Notes under the pieces: generated by a model
What the model saw: the letters and a program-made list of their open reading frames with translations, nothing else
What the model was told of the DNA's origin: nothing
Databases searched by the model: none
Made by a program: the position numbers and the translations under genes
Source of the DNA: Patescibacteria group bacterium
Lineage (GTDB): Bacteria > Patescibacteriota > Patescibacteriia > UBA9934
Reading direction: 5' to 3'
Length of the DNA stretch: 64,000 nucleotides
Assembly: GCA_038064675.1 (NCBI GenBank)
Contig: JBBTSM010000003.1
Coordinates: 191,212 to 255,211 of the forward strand
Part shown: piece after piece, positions 1,945 through 43,123 of the stretch
Position numbering within the stretch: position 1 is the stretch's first letter
How the letters are laid out: each line of letters starts with the position of its first letter

Positions 1945-2048
1945 AGGCTAGTTTCGATGAACGACGAGCAAAGTTTTCGAGATGTACTTCTCGGTACATC
2001 GAGAAAATTTGCGATGGCGTGAGTCGAAAATAGACAAAATTAGGAAGT
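1945..2048 (+). repeat. ~100-bp intergenic repeat element, copy 1 (TTTTAGGCTAGTTTCGATGAAC…GATGTACttctcgGTACATC…GTGAGTCGAAAATAGACAAAAT)
   Basis: Near-identical to copies at 21058-21160 and 30026-30130; contains 7-bp hairpin GATGTAC/GTACATC; lies upstream of minus-strand gene start at 1919. Confidence 0.7.
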
Positions 2049-3428
2049 TCTCTGCTTTGCCCACTGACGAACCACCCATGTCGCGCGTACGTCGTCTTCA
2101 TTGTAGCGCAACACGTCGTTGAGCATCTCGCGATTTCCGGTACGCAACCAGTCCTCGTACCACAATACCGAGTTCAATCCAGACGCGTCGTCGTGCCGCC
2201 AACGAAAGCCGAGGAACTGCGCGATGTCTTTCAATGAATAAAACGACAACGGGAAAATCACCGCCTCGCGCAAACGCTCGAGAACATCCACCGATCGCTC
2301 TGCAAGGTCGTCAACAAATCCTTCTGGCGCGCCGTGACGCTCCGCCATCAGCCGAAATACGTCTTGTTCGTACCATCCATAGTGATACACCGGAATACCC
2401 GGGCGCGACTCCATGAATGCCACGAATGCATCCCACGCCGCCTTTTCCTCGTCCTGCTTTTCTGCAAGGAACGTGTGGAATTCATCGCCTTGGCCGTGCA
2501 CATCGAGCACACCAAAAAGGTAGTGCAAATCACGAAGCGGATCAGCCTCGATATCAACGACGAGTGCGTCGTCAGTTTTTGGGAAGTCGACTTTTCCGAG
2601 GACGACCGGTTTGCCGTCGAGCAGTGCCTTCGCGCCGAGAATGAGGAATTGCAGACGTTCTTGTGTAACACCAGGAACACTGCGAGCAAGGAGATCCGCG
2701 TTCCGCGTTGAGAGCTGTGTAACCGTGGTGATTCCTGCATCGTTCAACGCCGTCACCTCGCTGCGCCAAATGCGGTTCATGCGCGACAAATGATCATTCG
2801 CAATTGTTTCCTTTTTGCATTCATCGAACCACGGGGATTGTTTGCAATCTGATGTGAGGAAATGTGGTTCGCGAATACCTTCGAGAATGCGTTCAATGCC
2901 ATCGAGGGTGAGGCGGAATTTCGTTTGATACTCCTCGAGGACGTAGGCCTCGACGGTTCCATCGGGCCGCATGATGTATCCCTGTTTTGGCTTCATGCCC
3001 TGAATGCCGCGAAGCACCTCGGCGTAAAACGCGCCCTGCACACAGTATTCATCTTTCAAATGACGAGAACGCTTAATGTCGCAGGCAACGTAGTAGTACT
3101 CTCCAAAAGTCGATTTCCCAGAAACGCGTTCGAAAAGATCGGGTTTTGCAACCCAGTGTCCGTGAATAAGCACGCCACCATAAATCGACTGCGCACCCTG
3201 CTTCATGAGCTCAAGCGTTTTCGCGCACGCCTCCTCTTCCGATTCCGCTGAAACTTCAATGGATTTTCGGGTCACCAAAATTGCGCGCTCTTGCTCCTGG
3301 ATCAAGGCGTCGTCTTGCACTCGCGCTCGCATTGCGTCTTCTCGGTGCGGCAATGTTGCGTCGTACCAAATCCACGACGGACACTTGAGATAACGATAAA
3401 AGCTTTGCTTGGTGATGCGTTTGGACAT
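2040..3428 (-). CDS. RecB-like PD-(D/E)xK nuclease with C-terminal RNase H-like (3'-5' exonuclease, DIE motif) domain (COG2251/TM0106-type)
   Basis: 462 aa; N-terminal Cys-containing Cas4/RecB-like region (YRYLKCPSWIWYD…), C-terminal LVVDIEADPL…YHYGWYE exonuclease-like motifs; immediately downstream of an XRE regulator. Confidence 0.55.
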   Translation of the reverse strand: MSKRITKQSFYRYLKCPSWIWYDATLPHREDAMRARVQDDALIQEQERAILVTRKSIEVSAESEEEACAKTLELMKQGAQSIYGGVLIHGHWVAKPDLFERVSGKSTFGEYYYVACDIKRSRHLKDEYCVQGAFYAEVLRGIQGMKPKQGYIMRPDGTVEAYVLEEYQTKFRLTLDGIERILEGIREPHFLTSDCKQSPWFDECKKETIANDHLSRMNRIWRSEVTALNDAGITTVTQLSTRNADLLARSVPGVTQERLQFLILGAKALLDGKPVVLGKVDFPKTDDALVVDIEADPLRDLHYLFGVLDVHGQGDEFHTFLAEKQDEEKAAWDAFVAFMESRPGIPVYHYGWYEQDVFRLMAERHGAPEGFVDDLAERSVDVLERLREAVIFPLSFYSLKDIAQFLGFRWRHDDASGLNSVLWYEDWLRTGNREMLNDVLRYNEDDVRATWVVRQWAKQRTS

Positions 3429-3445
3429 GAGGGCAGTGTACAGGA

Positions 3446-3673
3446 CTACGCCTTGAAGGTGAATAAATCTTCGATTTTCACCCGCAAATACGCCGCGAGC
3501 CGAAATGCGGTGAACAATGAGGGTTGCGCAGTGCCCTTTTCAATAGCGGCAAGCGCCTGACGACCAATGCCGATTTCTTTTGCAAGATCGGTCTGCGAGA
3601 TCGGAATGAGAATACGATACGAATACACGCGGGAAATGAATTTGATTTTCTTTTGAGAAGATGGGGCGTGCAT
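3446..3673 (-). CDS. XRE-family helix-turn-helix transcriptional regulator
   Basis: 75 aa; classic HTH_3 signature (SQTDLAKEIGIGRQALAAIEKGTAQPSLFTAFRLAAYLRVKIEDLF). Confidence 0.7.
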   Translation of the reverse strand: MHAPSSQKKIKFISRVYSYRILIPISQTDLAKEIGIGRQALAAIEKGTAQPSLFTAFRLAAYLRVKIEDLFTFKA

Positions 3674-3785
3674 AGAAGCGATCTGAACCTGATCCTTTAA
3701 AGGGTTGTGAGGGGCTTATGCTGACATGTGCATCATCGGCGATCCCCATATTCCGACCTGAGGTGCCTCGATTTTCGATTTCGCC

Positions 3786-3913
3786 GATGTCGTGTTGACA
3801 CAACATTTCATTCGCGAAAACGCCAATGATTTTCACAATCAGATGTCGTGTCGACACGACATCTACAATATCACAAAACACACACGCCAAGATCGCCGAT
3901 CGTGTCGTGTCAC
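3786..3913. promoter_or_regulatory. Operator-like palindromes in the promoter region of the XRE regulator (GATGTCGTGTCGACACGACATC perfect 22-bp palindrome at 3842-3863; imperfect copies at 3786-3806 and 3896-3913)
   Basis: Three related TGTCGTGT(T/C)GACAC(G/A)ACA dyads spaced ~56 bp apart directly upstream of the minus-strand HTH gene start (3673). Confidence 0.45.
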
Positions 3914-3956
3914 ACCCATCCTGCTCACACCCCATCCCTCCCAACCTATTCCAAGG

Positions 3957-4490
3957 TCAGTTCGAACGCGCCTTATCTCTCTCTTCCGCCCCCAGCGTCA
4001 TTGCACTATTCAATATCATCGCCACAGAGACCGATGATCCCGGTTTCCGTACAATCGTAGACCAGGATGGCTGTCCACCGTCAGCGCCGTTCACCATAAG
4101 CGATTCATTCCAGTCAAGAACATGTTCAACGCCCTTCGGAAAAAGCGCCTCCAAAAATTCTCGTGATCTTCCAATGCCGCGAATATCATGTTTATCCTCA
4201 GAGCGATGAAAGAGAGAGTACATTCCACCGGGTTTCAATTTGGTAAATGCAGCCGCAATAAATGCTCGTTTCGCGTCGTCGTCCAAGGATTCCAACGACC
4301 CGTGGTCTGCAATCGCCGCAAGCGATTCATTCGCAATGAGCTCAAAGTCCGTCGCGGAATATGCATCTAATATCTTTCCTTCTTCTTTTGCTGCCTGAAG
4401 AAGTGTCTCGAGCGTCGAATGCTGCTGCGGAGCTCGCTCCTTACTTGAGGTGTTCTCAAAACTCTCCGTTCCAAATACTGGATCATTCAT
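3957..4490 (-). CDS. hypothetical protein (weak resemblance to C-terminal part of a class I methyltransferase: …KLKPGGMYSLF…)
   Basis: 177-aa ORF with consistent coding strand; no SAM-binding GxGxG motif seen. Confidence 0.35.
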   Translation of the reverse strand: MNDPVFGTESFENTSSKERAPQQHSTLETLLQAAKEEGKILDAYSATDFELIANESLAAIADHGSLESLDDDAKRAFIAAAFTKLKPGGMYSLFHRSEDKHDIRGIGRSREFLEALFPKGVEHVLDWNESLMVNGADGGQPSWSTIVRKPGSSVSVAMILNSAMTLGAEERDKARSN

Positions 4491-4609
4491 ATGTCGCTAC
4501 TGTATCACAACAAAACACGAGGCGAACCTCGTGTTTTGGATATCTTTTATTGCGCGTCTTCAACCATCACTTTTGTTACGATTTGATTTTCCACTGGCCA
4601 ATCGTGCGA

Positions 4610-5089
4610 TTACAAAATTCCCGCAGCACGAACACAGTCAAAATCTTTTTGTACAACCGAGTGCAATGGCGATGGCAATGTATCAAGGGTAAACCAGCCA
4701 ATCTCATCAATCTTGTGCGGTTCACCATTTTTTACCTCGGAAGGATCGACGCGAACGGCGAATGTGAGTGCAACCCAGTGCGTTGGAGTTCCATCGTTGT
4801 CTCTCAAAACATTATGCGTCCCGCACAACGTCACGTCTTTCGCTATTGCGCAGTACTCTTCGAAGACTTCCCGACGAACAGTCTCCTCAAAATTCTCGCC
4901 AAATTCGAGCGCGCCTCCCCCGCAATCCCACCGTCCGTGTTCATCTCGCGCGTTCGTGCTTCGCTTTTGCAGAACAAACTTTCCATCACCATCATGACAT
5001 ACAAAACTACACGCAACGCCAATGCAATCCACGCCACGCTTTAGCCCTATTTTTGTTGCGTCGTCGGTCATATGCGACGATACTATCAC
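4610..5089 (-). CDS. NUDIX hydrolase
   Basis: Nudix box GGGALEFGENFEETVRREVFEEYC (GX5EX7REVXEEXGU pattern). Confidence 0.7.
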   Translation of the reverse strand: MIVSSHMTDDATKIGLKRGVDCIGVACSFVCHDGDGKFVLQKRSTNARDEHGRWDCGGGALEFGENFEETVRREVFEEYCAIAKDVTLCGTHNVLRDNDGTPTHWVALTFAVRVDPSEVKNGEPHKIDEIGWFTLDTLPSPLHSVVQKDFDCVRAAGIL

Positions 5090-5122
5090 AAAGGCGAGGC
5101 ACAGTGGCCTCGCCTTTGCTGT

Positions 5123-5758
5123 TTATTGAATGTCCTCAACCGTCACCTTCGTCATCACTTGGTTCTCTACTGGCCGATCGTGCGCACCGGTTTTGGTTGC
5201 AGCGATTGCGTCTACCACATCCATGCCCGATGTCACTTCCCCAAAAATGCTGTACGCATGTGGCAGCGGAACGTCTTTGTGCATAATAAAGAACTGGCTG
5301 CCATTCGTATTTGGCCCGGCATTTGCCATTGCCACTGTTCCGCGAGTGTAGGTATGGGTATCAGCGAGTTCGTCCGAGAATTTGTATCCCGGGCCACCAG
5401 AACCTGTTCCCGTTGGATCACCGCCTTGAATCATGAAATCGCTAATCACGCGATGAAAAATCAATCCGTCGTAATAACCGTTGCTCGCCAAATACACAAA
5501 GTTCGAAACGGTCTTTGGCGCAGTATCGTCGTACAATTTGAACACGATATCGCCCTGTGCTGTCGTGAGGCGAATCTGCTTATTGTGAATCTGCTCTGCA
5601 GGAAGCACGCCTGGGAATGACCATGTTTTCGTTTCCACAACGGGGGTAGGTGATGAAGAGTCTTGTACCACAGGAGTTGTACCCGATGGAGCCGACGTTG
5701 TGCAACCCGCGCCTAAGAGCCACAAAAACCCAGCGGTGATGATCAAAGAATGTTTCAC
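5123..5758 (-). CDS. Peptidyl-prolyl cis-trans isomerase, cyclophilin type, with lipoprotein-like signal peptide
   Basis: Cyclophilin signature FHRVISDFMIQGGDPTGTGSGGPGY…; N-terminus MKHSLIITAGFLWLLGAGC (lipobox-like). Confidence 0.85.
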   Translation of the reverse strand: MKHSLIITAGFLWLLGAGCTTSAPSGTTPVVQDSSSPTPVVETKTWSFPGVLPAEQIHNKQIRLTTAQGDIVFKLYDDTAPKTVSNFVYLASNGYYDGLIFHRVISDFMIQGGDPTGTGSGGPGYKFSDELADTHTYTRGTVAMANAGPNTNGSQFFIMHKDVPLPHAYSIFGEVTSGMDVVDAIAATKTGAHDRPVENQVMTKVTVEDIQ

Positions 5759-5762
5759 AGAA

Positions 5763-5882
5763 TTACTTTAATTGCGACGTGAGTGTTTGCACCTTCGCTT
5801 GCTGAATGCGAAGCGCGTACACCGACGTGAAGAGTACTGCAGAAAGCGAAAAGACCAAAACAAGCAAAAGCGCCATCAGTTC
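5763..5882 (-). CDS. possible small membrane protein (MELMALLLVLVFSLSAVLFTSVYALRIQQAK…)
   Basis: Short ORF with one TM helix; start uncertain (track ORF extends to 6032). Confidence 0.2.
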   Translation of the reverse strand, partial: ELMALLLVLVFSLSAVLFTSVYALRIQQAKVQTLTSQLK

Positions 5883-6065
5883 CATGCTTCCTGCTGGAAG
5901 TGCGTGGCAGCTTTGGCACAAATTATGATGACGAGCTGGCGCAACCACCGGAACAACGTGCGATGCCGACGAGAACGATCGCGCACGACGAGGTGCTGCA
6001 GCTGGTTTTTTTGATGAGGCGCGTGTTGCCATAAGAAAAAGTTGATGATGGATGCCAAAAGTATA

Positions 6066-6818
6066 TCACTCCCTCGCGCGAAGTTCTTCCCCAGTCGCGC
6101 ATCCCGTTCCGTCTGCCGACACCACCCATTCACCAACCAACGTAAACTCTACGAGAGTATCCACATCATCAACAGGGACAAATAGCGTTCTTACCGAGGA
6201 TGAAAATTCACTGTGATCCCCGGCACCAATGTTCCCACCGCATCCACCATACTCTCCAAAACCTTCCAATCGGACCGGAACACCATCAGGCAATGTATAT
6301 GCAAGCGAAATACCATATCCCCGCGTACTGTTCGGTGCCCTCACCCGAAGAAGAGTGCCAAACGTCGAGAGCATGATCGGTGCAGAAATCTTTGGCGTAA
6401 TACCTAAAGCAAAGTCACCAAGCGTCGACACACGCACAGCTAAAACATCGTCAGTATCCGCGACCACGTCGTACAATCGTTCCCACATGCCAAGCGACAC
6501 ATCAAACCAATACACCGCCGTTGCGTCCAGAGTTCCTGCAGTTGCCGAGCGCTCAAAGGAAAGAATAATCGGCGCATCATGCTGCACGTTGGTTGGCGCA
6601 ACGTGATACACATGGCTCACGAGCGGTATTGCAACCGTCGCCGTATTGTCGACCACCACCGAAAAATCATTCGCGGTTCGCGAAAGCCCAGTAATCGTTA
6701 CCACGCCGTCATCGCTCTTCACCTCTCGTGCTTCCGGCTCCTTTGCCACAATAAACCACACCGTCATTCCCAAAACGATCACTGCAAAAATTCCAAAAAT
6801 TCCTCGAATCGATTTCAT
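6066..6818 (-). CDS. hypothetical N-terminally membrane-anchored protein
   Basis: Likely start MKSIRGIFGIFAVIVLGMTVWFIV (TM/signal) just downstream of metK stop; remainder Thr/Val-rich extracytoplasmic-like. Confidence 0.4.
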   Translation of the reverse strand: MKSIRGIFGIFAVIVLGMTVWFIVAKEPEAREVKSDDGVVTITGLSRTANDFSVVVDNTATVAIPLVSHVYHVAPTNVQHDAPIILSFERSATAGTLDATAVYWFDVSLGMWERLYDVVADTDDVLAVRVSTLGDFALGITPKISAPIMLSTFGTLLRVRAPNSTRGYGISLAYTLPDGVPVRLEGFGEYGGCGGNIGAGDHSEFSSSVRTLFVPVDDVDTLVEFTLVGEWVVSADGTGCATGEELRARE

Positions 6819-6825
6819 GACGTCA

Positions 6826-10636: not shown

Positions 10637-10712
10637 TTTAGTCATCCCCGCGTAGGCGGAGATCCATCTTTCAACAACGAACACTCTGGATCCCCGCCTA
10701 CGCGGGGATGAC
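10637..10712. repeat. REP/BIME-like element: two inverted 25-nt palindromic units GTCATCCCCGCGTAGGCGG(A)GATCC … GGATCCCCGCCTACGCGGGGATGAC
   Basis: Each unit is itself a hairpin (ATCCCCGC-CTAC-GCGGGGAT); second copy of the unit at 55017-55045; sits between convergent dinB and PEBP genes (bidirectional terminator-like). Confidence 0.6.
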
Positions 10713-20749: not shown

Positions 20750-20821
20750 ATGAATATAGGCGCTTTTCCCATTTGGCCTCTTTTCAGCTTGTCGCATCGG
20801 AAACTCGCTCAACGTACACAT

Positions 20822-20875
20822 GAAGTACGTCTCGCGAGATTTCCTCGCTCCGCACCGAAAATAGTCTCAAATGTG
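20822..20875 (+). repeat. Partial/divergent copy of the ~100-bp intergenic repeat (…GAAGTACGTCTCG…GCACCGAAAATAGTCTCAAATG)
   Basis: Matches the hairpin and tail modules of copies at 43040-43123 and 1945-2048. Confidence 0.45.
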
Positions 20876-20904
20876 CAAAGTGCGTCCTTTTTACCTCAGC
20901 GTTC

Positions 20905-20940
20905 ATATCGTGGGCCCCGTCTACGCAGGGAGGATCCATT
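20905..20940. repeat. Degenerate REP-like unit (GGGCCCCGTCTACGCAGGGAGGATCCATTCG)
   Basis: Shares CCCCG(C/T)CTACGC(G/A)GGG hairpin core and GGA(G)GATCCAT(C/T) flank with 10637-10712. Confidence 0.4.
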
Positions 20941-21057
20941 CGATGATGTATTGAACGCCTGTGAGATGTGATGAATAAGTGCCCGTAGAAGACGGCAGAA
21001 TAGTACTAAACTTTGCTAAAATTCGCAAATGAATCCTACAAAAATTCTGATATTTGT

Positions 21058-21160
21058 GGCGAGTTTCGATGAAGAGCGAGAAAATGTCCCGAAAACGTAC
21101 TTCTCGGTACGTTGAGGGAATTTTCGATGGTCTGAGTCGAAAATCGACCAAATAGCAGGA
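21058..21160 (+). repeat. ~100-bp intergenic repeat element, copy 2
   Basis: GCGAGTTTCGATGAAGAGCGAGAAAATGTCCCGAAAACGTACTTCTCGGTACGTTGAGGGAATTTTCGATGGTCTGAGTCGAAAATCGACCAAAT; upstream of rpsB (minus) start region. Confidence 0.65.
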
Positions 21161-21163
21161 TTT

Positions 21164-22174
21164 TTAGCGAATAAACATGGCGTCTCCAAAGGAAAAGAAT
21201 CGGTATCTGTGATCGATAGCTTCTTTATAGGCAGCGAGGATGTGCTCGCGATCGGCGAAGGCGGAAACGAGCATGAGCAAGGTGGATTTTGGAAGGTGGA
21301 AGTTGGTTATAAGGCCATCGACGATCTGAAATTGGAATCCCGGCGTAATAAACATATTCACTTCCCCGCTGTACGCCGCAAGCTCACCAATCGTTGCAAC
21401 AACGCCCTCAAGAACTCGCACCGTCGTTGTTCCCACCGCAATAACCCGACAACCTTCTGACTTCGCCGATCGAATTCTCTGTGCGGTCAATTCATCGATT
21501 TCCACAAACTCGGCATGCATCACATGATCCTCGATGTGATCAGTTTGCACCGGGCGGAACGTGCCGATCCCCACATGAAGCGTCACTTCCTCGATCTGTA
21601 CGCCTTTCGCCCGTGCTCGATCGATGAGTTCGGGGGTGAAGTGGAGTCCTGCGGTTGGTGCGGCGACTGAACCGGTCGATCTTGCATAGACGGTTTGATA
21701 GCGATCGGGATCCGCGAGCTCGGTCGTGACGTATGGTGGCGTTGGTACTGATCCTGCAGATTCACAAAACGCAAACATCTCCCCCGCTGTCATCGATGAT
21801 TTCAGGGTCACGATTCCGTCTGTTGTTTTATTAGAGACGACCCAGCGGGTCGTCTCTACGGTGATCGCAGATCCGATACCTAATTTTCTGCTCCCGCGAA
21901 TCAATACATCGATTTCACCATCGCGAACCTTGAGGACGAAAACTTCGAAGCCGTCGATCTGAAGACGAGCCTTAAAAACCTTTGAAACATTAAAGACGAG
22001 AACGTCGCCGGCATTCAACTCGTCGAGAATTTCAGCAAATCGATCGCGATGACGGATCTCCCCCGAATTCCGGTCGAGCACCAACAGCCTCGATGCATCC
22101 CGTGGCTCAATAGGAACCTGAGCGATCAGCTCCTCCGGCAAATCGTACGAAAAATCAGCAACAGGCGTTGGCAT
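21164..22174 (-). CDS. queA: S-adenosylmethionine:tRNA ribosyltransferase-isomerase
   Basis: MPTPVADFSYDLPEELIAQVPIEPRDASRLLVL…, GTTTVRVLE motifs. Confidence 0.9.
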   Translation of the reverse strand: MPTPVADFSYDLPEELIAQVPIEPRDASRLLVLDRNSGEIRHRDRFAEILDELNAGDVLVFNVSKVFKARLQIDGFEVFVLKVRDGEIDVLIRGSRKLGIGSAITVETTRWVVSNKTTDGIVTLKSSMTAGEMFAFCESAGSVPTPPYVTTELADPDRYQTVYARSTGSVAAPTAGLHFTPELIDRARAKGVQIEEVTLHVGIGTFRPVQTDHIEDHVMHAEFVEIDELTAQRIRSAKSEGCRVIAVGTTTVRVLEGVVATIGELAAYSGEVNMFITPGFQFQIVDGLITNFHLPKSTLLMLVSAFADREHILAAYKEAIDHRYRFFSFGDAMFIR

Positions 22175-22247
22175 AATGCCGGATATTTTAGGCTAATGCT
22201 TGCGGAAAAGCAATTTTTATGATATAGAATTCTTACCCGAGGTTCAC

Positions 22248-22601
22248 ATGAATACGTTGATGGTTCACGCCATGATCCAGGTGGGTGGTTTCCTGACTCT
22301 CGCTCTGGTGGCGGCATTTTTCATTCAGGCGTTCGAAGTCCTGAAGAGGGTCGTAACGCCCAATCGATTCCTCGCGCTCGCAATCATCACCTCCGTGTTC
22401 CAGGTCCTGACCATCTGGATCCTGAACAATGGAGGATACGACGTTCTGCGCGCCAATCCCAAGGGGGAGGTCCTCATCACGGATATGAAAGTATCAACGG
22501 TGCTGTCCTTGATCTGTGCGTTTTTGGCCGCACTTCACGTGGCGGGGTACGACATGATTCTTTCGTTTCCGGAAATCATTCGGCGGATCAAAAAGCTCTA
22601 G
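22248..22601 (+). CDS. small GC-rich membrane protein (cassette 1)
   Basis: 117 aa, 3 predicted TM helices; own promoter (TTGCGG…TAGAAT at 22196-22242) and GC-hairpin terminator + GTCGTTTTATACACAATTCAC (22625-22669). Confidence 0.45.
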   Translation: MNTLMVHAMIQVGGFLTLALVAAFFIQAFEVLKRVVTPNRFLALAIITSVFQVLTIWILNNGGYDVLRANPKGEVLITDMKVSTVLSLICAFLAALHVAGYDMILSFPEIIRRIKKL

Positions 22602-22742
22602 TGAGACAACTCTCAAAAACGCGCTCGCGCCCAGGACGACCCCTGGGCGCGAAGTCGTTTTATACACAATTCACATCCATTTATAGGCTAATATTTGCAG
22701 AAAAACAATTTTTTCGATAGAATGAGTTTACCTGAGAGATTC

Positions 22743-23087
22743 ATGGATCACATTCCGGTTATCGATACCTTCTTCAGTGTCGTCGCTTATCTGGCCATCT
22801 GCACCCTTCCGTTCGGTGCCGGGTGGATTCTGTGGAGGGAAAGGGCGAAGATGCACGCGCAGGGATGCGTGTACGGAATCACCCAAAACGAGAAGGCGAG
22901 CATCGTCATCGCCTTCCTGGGGGCAGTCCTCGGCTGCATGGGATTCATCATCAGCCAGAACTCTGCCGAGTTGGCGAAGTACTGCGGATTCTCATTCATC
23001 GGCAGCACCGTCATGCTCATCATCGGAGGATTCGTGAGCGCGCTCTACTATCGGGGGAGAGACGAGGAGCTCCGGTCCCGGTACTGA
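22743..23087 (+). CDS. small GC-rich membrane protein (cassette 2)
   Basis: 114 aa, 3 TM helices; promoter TTGCAG-17-TAGAAT (22699-22736); terminator + identical 21-mer GTCGTTTTATACACAATTCAC (23110-23153). Confidence 0.45.
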   Translation: MDHIPVIDTFFSVVAYLAICTLPFGAGWILWRERAKMHAQGCVYGITQNEKASIVIAFLGAVLGCMGFIISQNSAELAKYCGFSFIGSTVMLIIGGFVSALYYRGRDEELRSRY

Positions 23088-23154
23088 AACCACGCCGACG
23101 CCGCCCTACGCAGGGTGGCGTCGCGGTCGTTTTATACACAATTCACCGCCAATC

Positions 23155-23183
23155 TTTGACAAAAAACCCTTATTCCGATACTA
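23155..23183 (+). promoter_or_regulatory. sigma70-type promoter of rpmE (TTGACA-17-TACTAT) with ~170-nt leader
   Basis: Consensus -35 TTGACA at 23155-23160, -10 TACTAT 23178-23183. Confidence 0.45.
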
Positions 23184-23358
23184 TTTCCGCACTTATTCGG
23201 CTGTATACAAAGCAGCCTAACAAGAACCTTCCCATTTGGCCGATTTTCGACTCACGCCATCGGAAACTTTCTCACCGTACCGTTAAGTACGCCTCGAAAA
23301 TTTTCCTCGTCGTTCATCGAAACTCGTCACAAATGAAAAGGTTCTTACCAAAACCCTT

Positions 23359-23670
23359 ATGAAGGCGACAATCCATCCAAACTATTTCGATGCAACGATT
23401 ACCTGTGCGTGTGGTGCCACGTATAAGGTTGGTTCGAGCTTGGAAAAGATCGACATCGAATTGTGCAGTGCTTGCCACCCATTCTTCACCGGTAAGCAGA
23501 AAATCTTGGACACCGCTCGTCGCGTGGAAAAGTTCACCGCGAAGGACGGCAAAAAGGCAGCAACCGTCAAGACTGCAAAGGACAAGGCCGCAGAACGTGC
23601 CGCTCGTGCATCTGCAAAGGCTGCAAAGAAAGCAAACAGCGATACCTCGATCAAATCCGTTTCACGTTAG
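23359..23670 (+). CDS. rpmE: 50S ribosomal protein L31 with Lys/Ala-rich C-terminal extension
   Basis: MKATIHPNY…[13 protein letters not shown] (L31 CxxC…HPF(Y/F)TG). Confidence 0.85.
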
Positions 23671-29987: not shown

Positions 29988-30025
29988 AAGAATATCTTCT
30001 GACTTGATGAGGAATTTCTTATTTT

Positions 30026-30130
30026 AGACTAGTTTCGATGAACAGCGAGCAAAGTTTCCGAGGTGTACCTCTCGGTACATCGAGGAAATTTGCGATGATG
30101 TGAGTCGAAAATAGACAAAATAAGGAATTC
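30026..30130 (+). repeat. ~100-bp intergenic repeat element, copy 3
   Basis: TTTTAGACTAGTTTCGATGAACAGCGAGCAAAGTTTCCGAGGTGTACCTCTCGGTACATCGAGGAAATTTGCGATGATGTGAGTCGAAAATAGACAAAATAAGGAATTC; in divergent region between 29987 gene and gyrB. Confidence 0.7.
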
Positions 30131-30153
30131 CTCTTCTGTCAACAGGATTATAA

Positions 30154-33806: not shown

Positions 33807-33811
33807 ACCAA

Positions 33812-33845
33812 AAATCACTCCGAGCAATCGGAGTGATTTTTGTTT
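33812..33845 (+). terminator. nusG terminator, prototype of a repeated hairpin family AAAAATCACTCCGAGCAATCGGAGTGATTTTT
   Basis: Perfect 12-bp stem + U tract; near-identical copies at 35279-35312 and 36776-36812. Confidence 0.6.
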
Positions 33846-33897
33846 CATTTAACTGTACACATATAAATGGAAATACTGATAAAACGACCAAAGATCG

Positions 33898-35278: not shown

Positions 35279-35312
35279 CAAAAATCACCCCGAACAATCG
35301 GGGTGATTTTTT
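35279..35312 (+). terminator. copy of nusG-type terminator hairpin (AAAAATCACCCCGAACAATCGGGGTGATTTTTT)
   Basis: Sequence family match to 33812-33845. Confidence 0.55.
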
Positions 35313-35416
35313 ATTGACTTTTTCTGATTTTTATGCCATATTTCCCTGTTGATTCTTTCACAAGGAGCCCCTGTCGATATCTCAAGTCGATAGAGGTCCC
35401 TTGTGTAGGAGTCTCC

Positions 35417-35803: not shown

Positions 35804-36295
35804 GTGATCGACGACATCAATGAAATCTCACGAACCATCGTGCATGAAGCTGGCCACGCCACTGTAGGCGTCTTGCTATTCCCCGACGAAATCGTCTGGG
35901 TCAGCGCCATCCCCAATCCATCGTCACTGGGACGGGCACTTACTACGGTTACACTAGAAATGGTCGTTCGTTACCCGACTGAACGGTTCATCGACTATCT
36001 CGCGTTCCTTTTTGCGGGACGAGCGGCCGAAGAAAATCGGTTCAGCAACTACAAGGACTGGATGTCCCGGCATGATGAACAGAGTGCTCACGAAGCGCTC
36101 CACCAATATCGGGCCATGCATCCAAAACTCCTCCACAATGACCAGGATCTCACCACTCAGGCACGCCAGCGTGCTCACGAGATTCTCGTCAGAGAACAAT
36201 CTCTCTTCCACACGCTCACGTCGGGCCTCGTCCGCTACGACCAGTTCGGTCAGGAATGGCTCCTCTACAACTATTACCTCTTCGCCACGACGTAG
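35804..36295 (+). CDS. standalone FtsH-type M41 zinc-metallopeptidase domain protein (no AAA ATPase, no TM)
   Basis: HEAGHA zinc motif (IVHEAGHATVGVLL), IP…LG…, and GRAAEE motif (LFAGRAAEENRF) aligned as in FtsH protease domain; GTG start with GGAGGA RBS. Confidence 0.6.
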   Translation: MIDDINEISRTIVHEAGHATVGVLLFPDEIVWVSAIPNPSSLGRALTTVTLEMVVRYPTERFIDYLAFLFAGRAAEENRFSNYKDWMSRHDEQSAHEALHQYRAMHPKLLHNDQDLTTQARQRAHEILVREQSLFHTLTSGLVRYDQFGQEWLLYNYYLFATT

Positions 36296-36332
36296 CGCCG
36301 ACCCTCCCCAGGGTCGGCTCTTCCGTTTTATT
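36283..36332 (+). repeat. 50-bp duplicated 3' flank ACGACGTAGCGCCGACCCTCCCCAGGGTCGGCTCTTCCGTTTTATTG (copy 1)
   Basis: Near-identical to 37379-37430; includes terminator hairpin GCCGACCCTCCCCAGGGTCGGC. Confidence 0.6.
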
Positions 36333-36378
36333 GTCTTTAACGATCTTTCCGGTTATTGTCATTTCTATATCGCCTCTT

Positions 36379-36774: not shown

Positions 36775-36775
36775 A

Positions 36776-36812
36776 CAAAAAATCACTCCGAGCGCAACCG
36801 GAGTGATTTTTT
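36776..36812 (+). terminator. copy of nusG-type terminator hairpin (AAAAAATCACTCCGAGCGCAACCGGAGTGATTTTTTG)
   Basis: Sequence family match to 33812-33845. Confidence 0.55.
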
Positions 36813-36866
36813 GTTGCATTTTTTATAATCAATCGATAACCTTTCTTTGCTTTGGGAGTGAATACA

Positions 36867-37378: not shown

Positions 37379-37430
37379 CGACGACGTAGCGCCGATCCTC
37401 CCCAGGGTCGGCTCTTCCGTTTTATTGACT
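37379..37430 (+). repeat. 50-bp duplicated 3' flank (copy 2)
   Basis: ACGACGACGTAGCGCCGATCCTCCCCAGGGTCGGCTCTTCCGTTTTATTG. Confidence 0.6.
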
Positions 37431-38034: not shown

Positions 38035-38721
38035 ATGATCGGCAAGCGAATGGCTACAGCAAAGCAGATGATTGATAAGAAGAAACAGTACGCCGTAAAG
38101 GACGCTGTTGCACTTTTGAAAGAAACCGCAAAGGCAAAGTTCGACGAAACGGTTGAGTTGCACTTCGCGCTTGGAGTAGATCCAAAGCAGGGCGACCAGC
38201 AGATCCGCGGAACCGTTACCTTGCCACATGGCACCGGCAAGACGAAGCGCGTTATTGCCTTCGTGGACGCAAACAACGAAGCGGCTGCAAAGGCAGCAGG
38301 CGCAGACATCATCGGAACCGAAGAAGTACTCGAAACGATTATCCGCACTGGAAAAATTGACTTCGACGTTGCCGTCGCTGTTCCAAGCATGATGCCAAAG
38401 CTTGCCAAGGCCGCAAAGATTCTTGGACCTCGCGGTTTGATGCCTAACCCAAAGACCGACACCGTTGGTCCAAACATTGGGAAGATCATCGAAGAGCAGA
38501 AGGGTGGAAAGGTCGCATTTAAGAACGATAATACCGCCAACGTGCACATGATTGTTGGAAAGGTGTCGTTCAGCGCAGAAAACTTGGTTAACAACCTCGC
38601 GGTCGCCATCGAAGCAATTCGCAAGGTGAAGCCAGCGTCGTCAAAGGGCATCTATATGAAGTCTGTCACCATGACTTCAACCATGGGCCCAGCGATCAAG
38701 CTCGACCAAGCATCGGTCTAA
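38035..38721 (+). CDS. rplA: 50S ribosomal protein L1
   Basis: …KFDETVELHFALGVDPKQGDQQIRGTVTLPHGTGK…; start uncertain (38035 or 38050). Confidence 0.9.
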   Translation: MIGKRMATAKQMIDKKKQYAVKDAVALLKETAKAKFDETVELHFALGVDPKQGDQQIRGTVTLPHGTGKTKRVIAFVDANNEAAAKAAGADIIGTEEVLETIIRTGKIDFDVAVAVPSMMPKLAKAAKILGPRGLMPNPKTDTVGPNIGKIIEEQKGGKVAFKNDNTANVHMIVGKVSFSAENLVNNLAVAIEAIRKVKPASSKGIYMKSVTMTSTMGPAIKLDQASV

Positions 38722-38832
38722 CCTCACTCTCCCAATCCCAAAAATCCCCTCGATTCGAAAGAATCCGAGGGGATTTTGTTTGTACACAGCTGTGGATTCA
38801 TCAAACGCCAATCACTGCTAAACTCGTGACAT

Positions 38833-39423
38833 ATGTCGTCCCAATCCTATGATCCATTCGGGCCAGGATCAAACGTAGAAAAGCGGTGTGTCCAGGATCA
38901 GGAGAAGCTTCGTGTCCTTGTTCAGAGCCTCAAGGCACTCGGAATGAAGATCGTTCTTACTCAGGGCGTTTACGACCTCATTCATGAGGGTCATGCCGCG
39001 TACCTCGAAAAGGCAAAATCCCTCGGAGATATTCTTATCGTTGGCGTGGACTCCGATGAGCTGACGAAGATCCGCAAAGGGCCAAGGCGGCCGATCGTGC
39101 CGCAGGCCGAGCGCATCAACATGCTCCTTCATTTGCGTCACGTTGATCTTGTAACAATCAAAGAAGCACATCACGGCATTGGCGATATTATTTCGATCGT
39201 GAAGCCAGATGTGATGGTATTCTCGTCGTCCACAAAAGAAGTTGGTCCAGAAGATCTTGAAATATACAAACAGCACTGCGGAGAAATCGTCGTCCTTCCG
39301 CCACAAGCCACCACAACTACCACAGCTCGCGTACGCAATCTCACCATCGAGGGCGTTGAAGATCTGGCGAAGGAAGTGAATACACTCATGACCAATTTCG
39401 TGACCAAAATTCGCGAAGGCTAA
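38833..39423 (+). CDS. HIGH-motif cytidylyltransferase-like nucleotidyltransferase (RfaE-II/TagD-like fold)
   Basis: IVLTQGVYDLIHEGHAAYLEKAKSLGDILIVGVDSD (HxGH motif). Confidence 0.6.
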   Translation: MSSQSYDPFGPGSNVEKRCVQDQEKLRVLVQSLKALGMKIVLTQGVYDLIHEGHAAYLEKAKSLGDILIVGVDSDELTKIRKGPRRPIVPQAERINMLLHLRHVDLVTIKEAHHGIGDIISIVKPDVMVFSSSTKEVGPEDLEIYKQHCGEIVVLPPQATTTTTARVRNLTIEGVEDLAKEVNTLMTNFVTKIREG

Positions 39424-39424
39424 T

Positions 39425-40246
39425 ATGCTCATCGCGTTCGTTCCGGTTCTCCACAAAGGCTACATCAACCTTTTTAAAAAATACCCCGACACGCTGGGCA
39501 TTCTTGGCGCTGACGTTATCGCCGACTTCACCGCGCTCACTCGCGACTGCCGCATGGTCGAGCCTGAAGCGATGAAACTCGCGATCGAGAGCCTCAAAAT
39601 CTTTTCGTCTGTTCGTGTACTCTCGAAATCGGATCTCGCAGAAATCGCTCAATCAATGTTGCCGATCGTCATGCCAGATGAAGACGTTTCGCGCGAAATC
39701 GCAAAACAGCATTTCGCCGATCGCACAGTATTCGAATCGATATTTCTCCGATGGGACGGCATGAGAACGTTACGCGAGAATATTGCTGCCCCGGATCGAA
39801 AGATCTCTTCAGATGACTTCGCGAGGTCGATGATCCGTCTGGCAACCGCCGAAGCAACAAAGAGCAGTGACTGGTGGCGACAGGTTGGAACAGCAATCGT
39901 TAAAGACGGCGTTGTTATCGCGCTCAGTCACAACAGGCACCTCCCCACCGATTATCATCTCGACGTCGAAGGCGATCCGCGAACGAATTTCGATGCCGGC
40001 GTTCGAATCGATCTCTCAACCGCGATCCATTCAGAAGCGCTCGCGGTCGCGCAAAGCGCAAAAGCAGGCACACCACTCAATGGCGCCGACGCTTTCGTCA
40101 CTACATTCCCCTGCCCCAACTGCGCACGCTTGCTTGCCGAAGCAGGAATCAAGACCGTGTACTACAACAAAGGATATTCACTGCTTGATGCGGAGGAGAT
40201 TCTGAAGGCGTACGGGATTGAAATCGTGCTCGTCGAAATGAACTGA
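39425..40246 (+). CDS. dCMP (deoxycytidylate) deaminase with ~130-aa N-terminal extension
   Basis: C-terminal CDA fold: HSEALAV (HxE) … TTFPCPNCARLLAEAGIKTVYY (PCxxC); start overlaps stop of upstream gene (TAATATG). Confidence 0.7.
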   Translation: MLIAFVPVLHKGYINLFKKYPDTLGILGADVIADFTALTRDCRMVEPEAMKLAIESLKIFSSVRVLSKSDLAEIAQSMLPIVMPDEDVSREIAKQHFADRTVFESIFLRWDGMRTLRENIAAPDRKISSDDFARSMIRLATAEATKSSDWWRQVGTAIVKDGVVIALSHNRHLPTDYHLDVEGDPRTNFDAGVRIDLSTAIHSEALAVAQSAKAGTPLNGADAFVTTFPCPNCARLLAEAGIKTVYYNKGYSLLDAEEILKAYGIEIVLVEMN

Positions 40247-40247
40247 A

Positions 40248-40274
40248 GGGGTCAGGTCTTGAATCTATGCATTT
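40248..40274. repeat. 27-bp perfect inverted repeat, left arm GGGGTCAGGTCTTGAATCTATGCATTT
   Basis: Exact reverse complement present ~515 bp away (40789-40816); flanks HIT gene. Confidence 0.75.
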
Positions 40275-40316
40275 CTTCTTTTATGAAAAATATGGCTCTT
40301 GCATATTTCAATCCAG

Positions 40317-40760
40317 CTAACCCAAGCGCGTGAATACTCCAATTTTTGGATCATAACTCGGATCATCTGGATCGGATTGCAAAAGCTGACAGTGCAAATG
40401 AGAAACCGTCGACCCGGTAAATCGCATGTCACCAAACCGCATAAACATCGACCCAGCAGACATTTTGAAAATCGCCGTCTGTTCTTTAAGAATTTCTCCG
40501 AGCTCGATCCAAGCTTCTGAAGAAATTTGCGATATATGCTCAATATGCGTTCGGTGAATAAGGAGTTTGTGATGTTTTGTCGGTTTGTAAGGAAACTGAT
40601 TATCCGTGATAATCCAAAACATTCGCTGTTCCATCGGCTTCGTATGAATCCTGTTAAGATGCTGAGGACAAAAAGGGCAAATCTTCTGCTCAGTAATTTC
40701 AGCAATCACTTTATCGTATCCTCCTGGACGAGCATTTTGTTGATTAACGAAGTCATTCAT
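40317..40760 (-). CDS. HIT-superfamily protein, GalT/Ap4A-phosphorylase-like branch (H-x-H-x-Q)
   Basis: CPFCP zinc motif, …FPYKPTKHHKLLIHRTH…, STVSHLHCQLL triad variant. Confidence 0.55.
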   Translation of the reverse strand: MNDFVNQQNARPGGYDKVIAEITEQKICPFCPQHLNRIHTKPMEQRMFWIITDNQFPYKPTKHHKLLIHRTHIEHISQISSEAWIELGEILKEQTAIFKMSAGSMFMRFGDMRFTGSTVSHLHCQLLQSDPDDPSYDPKIGVFTRLG

Positions 40761-40788
40761 ACTTCAAAACGACCTAAAACTTTCTTCA

Positions 40789-40816
40789 AAATGCATAGAT
40801 TCAAGACCTGACCCCA
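40789..40816. repeat. 27-bp perfect inverted repeat, right arm AAATGCATAGATTCAAGACCTGACCCC
   Basis: Reverse complement of 40248-40274. Confidence 0.75.
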
Positions 40817-40821
40817 TCAGT

Positions 40822-42222
40822 TTACACCGGCGTCGGAATAATCATCGCCTCGTGCGGTTCGTAGTCGGCGACCGTGAAATGTTCTGGACGAAAGTCGAGA
40901 AGATCGGTGACGGTGGAGTCCATGTACATCGTTGGGAACGTACGAGGCTCGCGGTCGAGGAGTTGTTTGACGTGTTCAAACTGGCTTTCGTAAATGTGTG
41001 CGTCGGAAATAGTGTACACGAGCTCCTTTGGGGTGTAGCCCGTTGCTTGAGCGATCATCATCGTGAATGCGGCGTATTGGATGATGTTAAAAACGACGCC
41101 AACCGGAACGTCGCCACTGCGTTGGAAGTGATGAACCGAAAGCTGTTTTGTTTCTGGGAACACGAGGATGTGCAAATAGCCGTGGCATGGTGCGACGACG
41201 ACTTTGCGCGGAGAGATTCCTGAATGTTGCAGTGTGTACTGCGGAATCCACGGCGAAATAATGTGCGTGCGCAAATTTGGTCGCTCCTTGATTTGCTTCA
41301 CGACGTGCTCAATTTGATTGAACGGCTCGCCTTCACTTGTTGGAAACGCGGTCCATGCCGGGCCATAGCTTCCTGGACCAAGATCGCCTTCCGGCAAGCC
41401 GAAAATATCACAACGCTCTTTCGTCACCCATTTTTTCCACCACGCACAACCAAACGCCTTCAATTCTTCCTGCGTTCGCGCGCCGTGAAGGAACGCGAAG
41501 TGCTCACCGAGCGCACCAACCATGAAGCGTCCGCCGAGGTCGCGCTCCGTAATCATTGGGAATCCGTTCGCCAAATCGAAATGCATCTGCGCGCCAAGGA
41601 TCATGCGGGATCCTTCGCCTTGAATTGGCTTTACATCAACACCTTCTTCGAGAATTTTCTTGAGCAAATGATGATACTGCCAATCGATAGTACGTTCGAT
41701 AACCGGCTTCATGAACGATCGCTGCACGCGGTAGTGCAGAAGAACACTTCGTGCGTTCAGCTTTCGCGTATCGACGAGTTCGAGATTCACACGAGCAAAT
41801 TTTTCACCAAGTGGAACACCGTTACCGAACAAGAATGGCTCGAGAGTTAAAAAGACTTCATCGACGAGGCCGGCATCCAAAAACTGTCCGTACACCGAAG
41901 CTCCCCCACCAAGCGCTATTGTTTCAATGCCTTCGCCGATCAACCGCTTCACCAAAACCGCCGGAGAATCATTCGTGAATTCAACACCCTCGATCGGAGC
42001 CGCCGCTTCCGGATTCTTCGTTAATACAATCACCCGCCGGTCCTTCAAACCCTTCCCAATCGTGGCAAACGTCGTGCGGCCCATCACGACCACGCCAGCT
42101 TCCTTCGTCTTTTCCACAAAAAACTGCGTATCCTCCGCACTCGTCCAATCCAACGAGGATTGATCCACTTTTTCCGCAATTTTCCCATCCGCGCTCATGG
42201 CGGCAATCAGCCAGATTTTCAT
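40822..42222 (-). CDS. thyA: Bifunctional dihydrofolate reductase-like (RibD_C/DHFR family) – thymidylate synthase fusion
   Basis: N-terminal IAAMSADGKIA… DHFR-like reductase domain; C-terminal ThyA with DLGPGSYGPAW, VVAPCHGY (catalytic Cys), QRSGDVPVGVVFNIIQYA, DAHIY motifs. Confidence 0.85.
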   Translation of the reverse strand: MKIWLIAAMSADGKIAEKVDQSSLDWTSAEDTQFFVEKTKEAGVVVMGRTTFATIGKGLKDRRVIVLTKNPEAAAPIEGVEFTNDSPAVLVKRLIGEGIETIALGGGASVYGQFLDAGLVDEVFLTLEPFLFGNGVPLGEKFARVNLELVDTRKLNARSVLLHYRVQRSFMKPVIERTIDWQYHHLLKKILEEGVDVKPIQGEGSRMILGAQMHFDLANGFPMITERDLGGRFMVGALGEHFAFLHGARTQEELKAFGCAWWKKWVTKERCDIFGLPEGDLGPGSYGPAWTAFPTSEGEPFNQIEHVVKQIKERPNLRTHIISPWIPQYTLQHSGISPRKVVVAPCHGYLHILVFPETKQLSVHHFQRSGDVPVGVVFNIIQYAAFTMMIAQATGYTPKELVYTISDAHIYESQFEHVKQLLDREPRTFPTMYMDSTVTDLLDFRPEHFTVADYEPHEAMIIPTPV

Positions 42223-42382
42223 AGTTGTTCCGATGGTATCAGCCTAGCCCGCGTGGGTCGACGAACCATGTGGATACCCATCGCAATTCCAATAATTCTT
42301 CAAAATATCCAGAAATCGAAAAGGTGGAGCCGCGTTGGCCCCACCCCTCGTAGCGTCACCGTCCCGAACCAGCCCTCCGCAG

Positions 42383-42835
42383 CTACACCTTCGGCGCGTC
42401 GCGGTCCCCGATCGGGAAGTTGAACGTGGACGCGTGAAGCGAACCGTCCGAGAGCGTGACGATCTGGGGAACGATCATGTGGATGTGCGGATGCTGCATG
42501 ATCTGTCCGCTGTAGAGTCGATCACCCTCGCGGATGCAGATCCCGTACCCCTTGAGCCCGAAGCGTTCGATCAGTTCGTCACGCAAGTGCACGAACGCAG
42601 CGAAACCCGCCGCGGTGATCCTCTCCGTGCTGTGGTCAATAGGCGTGAAAAGGATCTGATACAGGGGCTGAATGAACAGCGCGTCCGTACGCGGGCGCTC
42701 ATTGGGGACCGCGATCCACCCTCCGTACGATGCGAGCGCATTGTCGCGCCAGCTCTGCTGACAGAAGCGGCAGCCGTCCCGCCGCACCTGTTCTTCATAG
42801 ACCCGTTCGGGCTTAACAACCTCAGTCATGTACAA
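42383..42835 (-). CDS. HIT-family protein (canonical H-x-H-x-H), GC-rich orphan gene
   Basis: CRFC zinc motif, QHPHIHMIVPQ histidine triad; high GC; terminator GGTGGGGCC…GGCTCCACC + TTTTCGATTTCTGG downstream (minus). Confidence 0.7.
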   Translation of the reverse strand: MYMTEVVKPERVYEEQVRRDGCRFCQQSWRDNALASYGGWIAVPNERPRTDALFIQPLYQILFTPIDHSTERITAAGFAAFVHLRDELIERFGLKGYGICIREGDRLYSGQIMQHPHIHMIVPQIVTLSDGSLHASTFNFPIGDRDAPKV

Positions 42836-43039
42836 CTCCGTGTGCCATGAAACACTACATTGCTACCCAATGTTTGGTCAAAAAGAAACATCACGCGGCC
42901 AAGCATGGCAACCGCGTGATATCTTTTTGCGACGACGTTTTCTCGTCATCACGCTTCGCACTGTACACGGAAAAAATGGAGGGTCAACGAAATTATGTGG
43001 ATAACGAAAAGAATTTATCATTTCGCCCATTTTCGGCTT

Positions 43040-43123
43040 GCTTCCTCAACGTGATCGACGACGTACCGAGAAGTACGTCTTGACGCTCACGTCTTCGTTG
43101 CGCACCGAAACTGGTCTGAAATG
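43040..43123 (+). repeat. divergent copy of the ~100-bp intergenic repeat (…CGTACCGAGAAGTACGTCTTGACGCTCACGTCTTCGTTGCGCACCGAAACTGGTCTGAAATG)
   Basis: Hairpin module inverted relative to copy 1, tail module GCACCGAAA…TCTGAAATG conserved. Confidence 0.5.

Follow-up and report, generated by a model that had tools for sequence, protein, structure and literature searches.

A family of ~125-nt palindromic repeats, probably mobile and under purifying selection, in Candidatus Uhrbacteria

In a 64,000-nt stretch of DNA (positions 191,212 to 255,211 of contig JBBTSM010000003.1; hereafter, the window) from a groundwater Candidatus Uhrbacteria genome, a member of the Candidate Phyla Radiation (CPR) whose QueA is encoded on Hainich groundwater (well H41) contigs, we characterized a family of dispersed palindromic repeats of about 125 nt. 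On balance, we favour the view that the element is a non-autonomous mobile repeat resembling REPINs (hairpin-forming doublets of repetitive extragenic palindromic, or REP, sequences), that it is co-transcribed with its neighbours and kept under purifying selection, and that the family is probably specific to a clade of Candidatus Uhrbacteria. The family is previously undescribed and belongs to the known class of non-autonomous palindromic repeats. A full-text search of the literature for repeats, hairpins, REPs or miniature inverted-repeat transposable elements (MITEs) of Uhrbacteria, Patescibacteria or the CPR found nothing relevant.

The repeats had been noticed in an earlier note on the window, which described a ~100-bp family of five copies, always upstream of minus-strand gene starts. 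A covariance model built from 112 family members and run on the window with filters off returned exactly six full-length copies, three per strand, with E-values from 1e-22 to 1e-38, which places the family far beyond chance; the next-best matches were generic hairpins (E > 0.01). Each match scored 90-145 bits in one orientation and 28-61 bits in the other, and the six copies, oriented toward the gene that they face, aligned end to end. Copies in the opposite orientation were also revealed by a repeat search, as inverted pairs I1-I3 and I5. The density was about 1 copy per 11 kb. The six copies, as well as the promoter found upstream of one of them, are listed below; copy coordinates are those of the ~125-nt element, and model matches reach ~4 nt further on each side.

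c1, 1928..2052 (model match 1924-2056), minus strand: full-length copy; 145 bits, E 9e-38
c5, 20759..20884 (model match 20755-20888), plus strand: copy of a diverged subfamily; 106 bits, E 9e-27
c2, 21040..21165 (model match 21036-21169), minus strand: copy belonging to inverted pair I5; 125 bits, E 5e-32
promoter, 23156..23184, plus strand: sigma-70-type, TTGACA-17-TACTAT, from the promoter scan, 10/12 consensus positions; terminator upstream at 23096-23123
c4, 23222..23346 (model match 23218-23350), plus strand: copy belonging to inverted repeats I1-I3; 139 bits, E 5e-36
c3, 30009..30133 (model match 30005-30137), minus strand: copy; 143 bits, E 3e-37
c6, 43009..43134 (model match 43005-43138), plus strand: copy of the most diverged subfamily; 90 bits, E 2e-22

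Reading of the sequence confirmed the three similar copies reported at ~1.9, 21.1 and 30.0 kb. Copies c1 and c3 (at 1.9 and 30 kb), 88% identical over 130 nt, both showed the GATGTAC/GTACATC apical stem and the GTGAGTCGAAAATAGACAAAAT tail. The copies at 20.8 and 43 kb also exist; they are not partial, but complete members of diverged subfamilies. All five copies of the original list were therefore real, but a sixth, the full copy c4 before rpmE, had been missed. Three of the six copies lie on the plus strand, which corrects the note's description of a single relative orientation.

Conservation of the flanks fell to background 9-10 nt beyond a 105-nt core, and the unit is therefore ~125 nt long; every copy is full length. 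The family consensus is taGaACtTcCtCATTTgGtCtATTTTCGACTCAcatCaTCGgAAAcTtgcTCAACGTACCatgAAGTACGtCTCgcgAgcTTTcCTCGatcTTCATCGAAACTaGcCtcAAATGagAAAGTcCTa. The outer stem, of ~10 bp, is fixed in length and free in sequence (consensus tAGRACTTCC / GAAAGTYCTa): it was variable yet complementary, as in AAAACACCG/CGGTGTTTT and GTTAACGAAT/ATTCGTTAAC, and measured 9-11 bp in 68 of 114 copies, whatever the sequence. The whole element is thus an inverted repeat, of which the outermost 10 bp vary between copies and stay complementary. Inside it, several core positions were invariant in 112 copies, and each arm holds a small palindrome, TTTYCGA-loop-TCGRAAA.

RNAalifold predicted a single rod-like hairpin with three internal loops and a C-N-N-K-A-A apical loop. 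In this 42-pair structure, 94.2% of 4693 cells were paired, versus 78.0 ± 0.3% in shuffled alignments and 31-44% when partner columns were slid. Changes on both sides were found in 33 of the 42 pairs, a number reached by 0 of 500 shuffles, and double-change cells numbered 742 versus 208 ± 20 in shuffles. The arms can also fold locally (86-91% paired), and a "clover" with one hairpin per arm was considered and rejected: such a fold is possible, but it showed no compensatory change, covariation being found only in the long rod, where variable positions track their long-range partners. In the folding check proposed in the note, all six window copies folded with z-scores of -4 to -10. In each case, the strand complementary to the gene-facing orientation was predicted to be the more stable (-52 to -59 versus -36 to -46 kcal/mol in the window copies; -53.5 versus -36.0 kcal/mol for the alignment consensus); for c1, the RNA fold had -41.8 kcal/mol (z -8.1) and its complement -55.8. 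The complement strand carries three consensus G:U pairs, and sporadic mismatches favoured this strand in 22 pairs versus 12. Overall, 36 G:T and 87 A:C cells were counted versus 3952 Watson-Crick cells, with G:U in less than 1% of cells; strand-specific folding, as modelled from these wobble pairs, is suggestive but not established.

Variants of the element were also observed. An internally deleted mini-copy of ~60 nt, in which left and right arms are joined, lies upstream of ftsZ (L006:3653-3693) and would still form a hairpin. Moreover, in many copies from several genomes the left arm reads TAGTCC for TAGGAC (e.g., L005, L033, L069, L077, L081, and L044), including 4 of the 12 young copies of assembly CALRGY01 described below; AGTCCT is then a direct repeat at both ends, with two stem mismatches.

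To describe the distribution of the family, an exact pattern taken from two conserved blocks was scanned over one genome per GTDB species (185,579 species genomes). It matched at 99 loci, of which 94 belong to 21 Candidatus Uhrbacteria/Patescibacteria assemblies. Some of these 94 loci are mislabelled as "uncultured Gammaproteobacteria" and share 50-95% amino-acid identity with the others. The five other loci (from Pyrinomonadaceae, Anaerolineaceae, Eubacteriales, and a proteobacterium) had no profile match and were attributed to chance, as was a single pattern match in a viral contig, which the model does not match. A profile search (nhmmer) of the 8-kb blocks around pattern matches, which are the L-numbered loci cited here, identified 148 copies, or 134 (in 0.76 Mb) once duplicates from the window's own strain were dropped. 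At least 43 copies were present in the assembly CALRGY01. Among metagenome queA loci, relatives were only 40-61% identical, and the long ones that were tested lacked the element. As for the check on relatives suggested in the note, copies were almost all intergenic (131 of 134, with genes called by a codon-usage model trained on the loci), but their orientation was biased only about 2:1.

Several observations point to mobility. More than 20 copies had an orthologous element-free spacer in another assembly, the empty spacers often measuring only 1-13 nt, and most sites were not common to different genomes. In CALRGY01, 12 copies with at least 95% identity were found at 12 unrelated loci, after stop codons, before or after canonical terminators, and beside tRNA genes; one lineage has thus undergone a recent burst. 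All 12 young copies read TAG...CTA at their ends (one without the final A), in the form TA-GGAC...GTCC-TA, with no longer direct repeat flanking them, and the TA is inseparable from the element's own TAG...CTA ends. The element is thus short (under ~400 bp), non-coding and present in many dispersed copies, and it combines the occupancy polymorphism with the near-identical recent copies that mark the movement of bacterial MITEs. In substance, the "MITE-like element" of the note therefore stood (short, non-coding, whole-length inverted repeat, dispersed, variable occupancy, burst). A composite transposon was considered and rejected, as what lies between inverted copies 1.1-1.5 kb apart is rplKA, rplJL, rnc-nusB, recA or similar genes and no transposase.

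Copies that stayed in place were compared with their flanks in orthologous pairs of loci, as follows.

L094 / L006: element identity 0.98; flanking third codon positions 0.65
L015 / L071: element identity 0.99; flanking third codon positions 0.59
L068 / L096: element identity 0.97; flanking third codon positions 0.56
seven more distant pairs: element identity 0.71-0.83; flanking third codon positions 0.44-0.54

Element-free orthologous spacers had identities of mostly 0.57-0.74. Moreover, an in-place compensatory replacement was found: the outer arm of c1, GAGAACTTCC...GAAAGTTCTC, reads GAGAACGCTC...GAGCGTTCTC in its orthologous copies in L015 and L071. Since the element was conserved beyond third codon positions and its pairing was restored by compensatory replacement, no neutral decay followed insertion, and this comparison of sequences indicates that inserted copies are under strong constraint on both sequence and base pairing.

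Elsewhere in these loci, two element-free stretches were also conserved, at 90-95% identity (L063:408-666 / L096:3362-3620, 259 nt; L030:1644-1941 / L089:2492-2790, 298 nt), in assemblies whose third codon positions are 51-69% identical. Judging from their sequence, they are probably unannotated RNA genes or small genes.

Over 119 copies, the flanking genes ran in the element's direction in 58 cases (tandem-sense) and both opposite to it in 31 (tandem-antisense); they were divergent in 22 cases and convergent in 8. The single orientation upstream of gene starts that the note had proposed thus fails family-wide, and what remains is a tandem bias (58:31, p = 0.006), which reached 23:6 (p = 0.002) in tight tandem spacers, i.e., with at most 40 nt beyond the element. 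The under-represented orientation is the one in which the RNA hairpin is 6-19 kcal/mol more stable, and the simplest explanation for its deficit in tight operon spacers is that very stable hairpins are selected against within polycistronic mRNA. Orientation also tracked the sign of the local GC skew (77:39, p = 5e-4), which was about as predictive as gene direction; orientation tied to GC skew is known for single-strand transposition. The left end often abutted the preceding gene, with a gap to the core of 6-14 nt in 38 of 68 cases, and in 10 cases the arm's own TAG is the stop codon of that gene; the right end usually lay 13-34 nt before the next start codon. For 25 copies, roughly the number that tRNA gene density predicts, a tRNA gene was at most 60 nt away, with its CCA end or 5' end usually at 0-9 nt; in 22 of them, the left end faced the tRNA (p = 1.6e-4). 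The genes of tRNA Pro, Ile and Val each lie between two inverted copies (L040:143-798, L058:1955-2289, and L082:2379-2718, respectively), at 0-7 nt and with left ends inward.

Within the window, the genes adjoining copies corresponded by Pfam to QueA, S2, L31, GyrB, dUTPase, and an RNase_H_2-family protein. Copy c1 lies between the RNase_H_2-family gene (2040-3428), whose TAA stop is inside the outer arm, and a 117-aa open reading frame (ORF; 1566-1919), whose ATG is 9 nt past the outer arm. The note had placed copies upstream of rpsB. Of these, c5 does abut the rpsB start, its left end being a few nt from the start codon (20750-20752, minus strand; the S2 Pfam match begins at 20752, and the true start is thus ~20752), but it is directed away from the gene, and it is therefore in the rpsB leader in complementary orientation; c2 lies at a distance of ~290 nt from rpsB and overlaps, with its outer arm, the stop codon of queA (21164-21166). 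The two copies are convergent, with ~155 nt between them. Copy c4 ends 12 nt before the rpmE (L31) ATG at 23359, downstream of the consensus promoter, and so lies within the 5' untranslated region (UTR). Copy c3 occupies the spacer of two divergent genes, a 303-aa ORF (29070-29981/29987, minus strand) and gyrB (plus strand, start ~30214), and is directed toward the former, according to the gene calls of L100. Finally, c6, whose nearest relative is L063:1860-1994 (81% identity), is upstream of the plus-strand dUTPase gene dut (ORF start 43121; homology-based start ~43190) and faces it, not the minus-strand ORF at 42383-42835 to which the note had assigned it; the "HIT" label given to that ORF found no Pfam HIT match.

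No recognisable promoter or terminator was found in the element itself. A sigma-70 consensus scan of 120 copies and their flanks yielded only 0-5 weak matches in bins inside the element, with almost no -35/-10 pairs, and strong matches outside it, pointing inward. In the window, the order is terminator, promoter (23156-23184), c4, and rpmE. Similarly, in L087, a TTGACA-17-TATACT promoter overlapping a textbook CIRCE operator precedes the element and hrcA-grpE-dnaK, and, in L052, TTGACA-17-TACTAT precedes the element and the rplJL leader. By sequence, at least the leaders of rpmE, rplJ and hrcA thus have a recognisable promoter ahead of the element. Three promoters, two of them directed at tRNA-Val (L082 and L030) and one likewise in L020, fire through oppositely oriented copies, and other copies are located either past a stop codon and before a canonical terminator or immediately after a tRNA CCA end. 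Together, these placements put the element inside transcripts and argue against promoter and terminator roles. The note's "shared promoter/regulatory module", which would drive or co-regulate the downstream gene, is therefore very improbable, even if many copies do end shortly before a start codon, the right end (TAAAAT/CAAAT) resembles a -10 box, and Correia elements are known to carry promoters. That -10-like box pairs and covaries with the left arm (columns 21/122), the 31 tandem-antisense and 8 convergent copies do not fit such a role, and no regulon emerged: clustering of both neighbouring proteins of each copy gave small clusters in mixed positions, the neighbours being unrelated housekeeping genes without common function. 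A duplicated intrinsic terminator, possibly bidirectional, is more improbable still. The long stable hairpin directly past stop codons and tRNA 3' ends would suit it, as would the A-rich and T-rich flanks of a few copies (e.g., in L056), but no U-tract follows the stem (mean 2.4-2.9 T in 8 nt), separate canonical hairpin-plus-T-run terminators adjoin copies in L028, L025, L057, L063 and L005, copies occur within 5' UTRs of essential operons, and only 8 of 119 lie between convergent genes. Insertion into pre-existing terminator loops, considered as the origin of the variable yet complementary outer arms, would fit some tRNA-adjacent copies (L056, L082) but was likewise not favoured, given the fixed length of the outer stem, the stepwise compensatory changes in orthologous copies and the missing T-tract.

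In the explanation that we consider the most probable, the element would be transcribed within neighbouring mRNAs and pre-tRNAs, where it would form a long RNA hairpin. Like REPINs, it would have spread in the form of a folded single strand, with a putative single-copy host-encoded enzyme acting in trans as mobiliser. The hairpin would be retained because propagation requires it or, alternatively, because it was co-opted in transcripts as a hairpin for boundaries, processing or stability; within tight operons, the more stable orientation appears to be selected against. A classical MITE, i.e., an IS630/Tc1-like (or other DDE) insertion sequence (IS) shortened by deletion and moved by cut-and-paste at its terminal repeats with TA duplication, seems rather unlikely to us. 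The young CALRGY01 copies are all flanked by TA...TA (TAGGAC...GTCCTA), and size, whole-length inverted repeat, intergenic site, co-transcription and occupancy polymorphism match Correia, ERIC and RUP elements (PMC3184786). However, many copies have no TA, the terminal 10 bp keep their length and complementarity with a free sequence, an ill fit to sequence-specific transposase binding, and orthologous copies are conserved far beyond neutral expectation. Moreover, no transposase, half-element, longer element or cognate autonomous insertion sequence with these ends was found in about 0.76-0.82 Mb of sampled loci. Variable tips, a fixed stem length, the lack of a multi-copy transposase and the link to GC skew together favour REPIN-like single-strand spread over a DDE-type MITE. 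We regard as unlikely, to a greater degree, that the element is primarily a host-encoded structured RNA or DNA module (e.g., an RNase III-type processing or stability hairpin, or a site bound by some protein) that marks gene and tRNA boundaries, with dispersal secondary. The identity of orthologous copies (97-99%, versus 56-65% at third codon positions), the invariant core positions and strict covariation, the placement at stop codons, tRNA CCA ends and 5' UTRs, and the three tRNAs sandwiched by inverted pairs all suit this possibility; against it stand the many unshared sites, orthologous spacers that function with 1-13 nt, the occurrence of both orientations, the lack of an Rfam family match, and a burst of near-identical copies at unrelated loci, which demands a copying mechanism.

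The REPIN-like, mobile reading also has points against it. The termini vary more than any other part of the element, which is unusual and contrary to what inverted repeats recognised by a transposase show. No clean target-site duplication or excision footprint was found, the filled and empty genomes compared being too diverged, and no mobilising enzyme was found: within the sampled 8-kb loci, no protein was multi-copy in a genome, and tblastn with approximate Y1-transposase, IS200 TnpA and Escherichia coli RAYT (REP-associated tyrosine transposase) queries gave no match below E = 0.05 in 0.82 Mb of these blocks, the best match being a glycosyltransferase. Such strong purifying selection would be unusual for selfish repeats, and host function could be primary. 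The bias of left ends toward tRNA genes, and often stop codons, is not explained by this reading. Finally, the near-absence of G:U pairs means that the choice between RNA and DNA and the identity of the folding strand are weakly resolved. There is also some room, well short of an even chance, for a domesticated sequence-specific gene-boundary module of a minimal CPR genome (e.g., a universal signal for processing or insulating polycistronic mRNAs and pre-tRNAs) or for the substrate of an undescribed hairpin-mobilising enzyme, either of which would explain the RNA-gene-like conservation, the fixed-length outer stem of free sequence, and the placement of one end at tRNAs and stops.

The remaining genes of the window include those encoding the ExoVII large subunit, NusG and DnaE, as well as a 466-aa ORF (40822-42222, minus strand) corresponding to a fusion of dihydrofolate reductase (N-terminal) and thymidylate synthase (C-terminal), an arrangement better known in protists and plants than in bacteria. 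Rfam 15 gave no match at gathering score in the window, and none at E ≤ 1 on two loci with eight copies. GC skew was uniformly negative across positions 1-64000 (-0.07 to -0.12 per 8 kb) despite several switches in gene orientation; the window therefore lies on one replichore with no origin, which excludes a replication origin at gyrB (30.2 kb). Between queA and rpmE, two tandem small membrane-protein genes (~22248-22601 and ~22727-23087) have in common a ~45-nt promoter region (22186-22240 and 22683-22730), which reads TAGGCTAAT..TTGC.GAAAA.CAATTTTT..ATAGAAT, and a strong terminator lies after each gene (22625-22652 and 23096-23123). The note had linked the start of the repeat, TTTTAG(G/A)CTA, to the promoters of these cassettes; the 10-mer common to both occurs there only once, at 22186, the second site reading TTATAGGCTA, and this is not significant. 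Strain-variable "cassettes" between queA and rpmE proved to be gene-calling artefacts, the DNA being 100% identical.

Other small repeats were also observed in the window. Three terminator-like hairpins AAAAATCACTCCGAGCAATCGGAGTGATTTTT at 33809-33850, 35279-35320 and 36779-36820, ~1.5 kb apart, form a second small repeat family, in which two members are 83% identical and the third 64%. A G+C-rich 28-nt hairpin repeat, TCTGGATCCCCGCCTACGCGGGGATGAC, is identical at 10640-10712 and 55015-55043, 44 kb apart, with one site being an inverted doublet; a degenerate copy is present at 20908-20935 in the rpsB leader, between c5 and c2. In addition, a 50-nt direct repeat with a hairpin occurs at 36287-36336 and 37381-37430 (96% identical, 1.1 kb apart), and 34-nt inverted repeats (40241-40274 and 40789-40822, 97% complementary) flank a 147-aa ORF with only a weak DcpS_C/HIT-like match.

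CPR/Patescibacteria genomes, of ~1 Mb, are generally held to be streamlined and repeat-poor. If the element is only selfish DNA, it would be the first such family described for the CPR, as far as our literature search showed; if the host uses the hairpin, it would provide a compact and experimentally tractable way to study how RNA is processed or the genome organised where the organisms are not yet culturable alone. Genes for ribosomal proteins, chaperones and tRNAs, as well as recA and pnp, have copies in their leaders and intercistronic spacers, and the covariance model can be used directly to annotate the family. Moreover, some public contigs end inside a copy (L103:3650-3714, L104:2629-2693, and L041:1999-2060), which suggests that the repeat breaks short-read assemblies.

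Among known systems, integron attC sites, such as the 123-126-bp Vibrio cholerae repeats, are likewise imperfect palindromes, of a comparable length, and function in a folded single-stranded form, and the order of gene stop, element, short spacer and next start recalls their cassette arrays. However, the element, with its TAGRACTTCC...GAAAGTYCTA ends, has no RYYYAAC / GTTRRRY core sites and forms no arrays; no integrase is nearby, and its copies are flanked by core housekeeping genes and tRNAs that are spread across all contigs. ERIC, Correia and RUP elements are MITEs of 100-160 bp with TA ends that form RNA hairpins and affect mRNA stability (PMC3184786). Correia (CREE/NEMIS, Neisseria) and RUP (Streptococcus pneumoniae) elements share with the present family their non-autonomous nature, size range, inverted ends, insertion beside genes, co-transcription and RNA hairpins, but in Correia elements the 26-bp terminal repeats are conserved, TA is duplicated, and an IHF site and functional promoters directed outward are present, whereas the termini here are variable, with no detectable promoter and no IHF-like site seen. 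ERIC/IRU elements of Enterobacteriaceae (127-bp imperfect palindromes) resemble the family in being of near-equal length, palindromic over the whole length and bounded by TA at both ends, and in occupying transcribed intergenic sites in either orientation, with orientation-dependent mRNA effects reported for ERIC. Compared by description, they differ in host phylum, in a much lower copy density and in lacking the variable outer stem.

REPINs are REP doublets that form hairpins and are mobilised by RAYT transposases, with compensatory changes, long persistence and a single-copy mobiliser (Bertels and Rainey, 2011; PMC3116915). The assignment of the present family as REPIN-like, which we favour, is by analogy, since of the features that define REPINs the hairpin alone was verified. 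Differences were apparent: no RAYT or Y1 gene was found with the approximate queries in the 0.82 Mb of blocks, and there is no GTAG/CGTC tag, the position before TAG carrying ~0.1 bit and GTAG being present in a minority of copies. Moreover, the element is conserved inside and variable at its tips, whereas REPINs have invariant 16-mers at their ends and a variable spacer; its local "clover" hairpins show no covariation, and its host is a CPR bacterium with a genome of ~1 Mb. The likenesses are nevertheless several. As in REPINs, two inverted arms, each with a small REP-like palindrome, form a long hairpin of ~100 nt with compensatory changes; non-coding intergenic copies number in the tens to hundreds and persist long in the lineage; no multi-copy transposase is associated with them; and their orientation tracks the replication strand.

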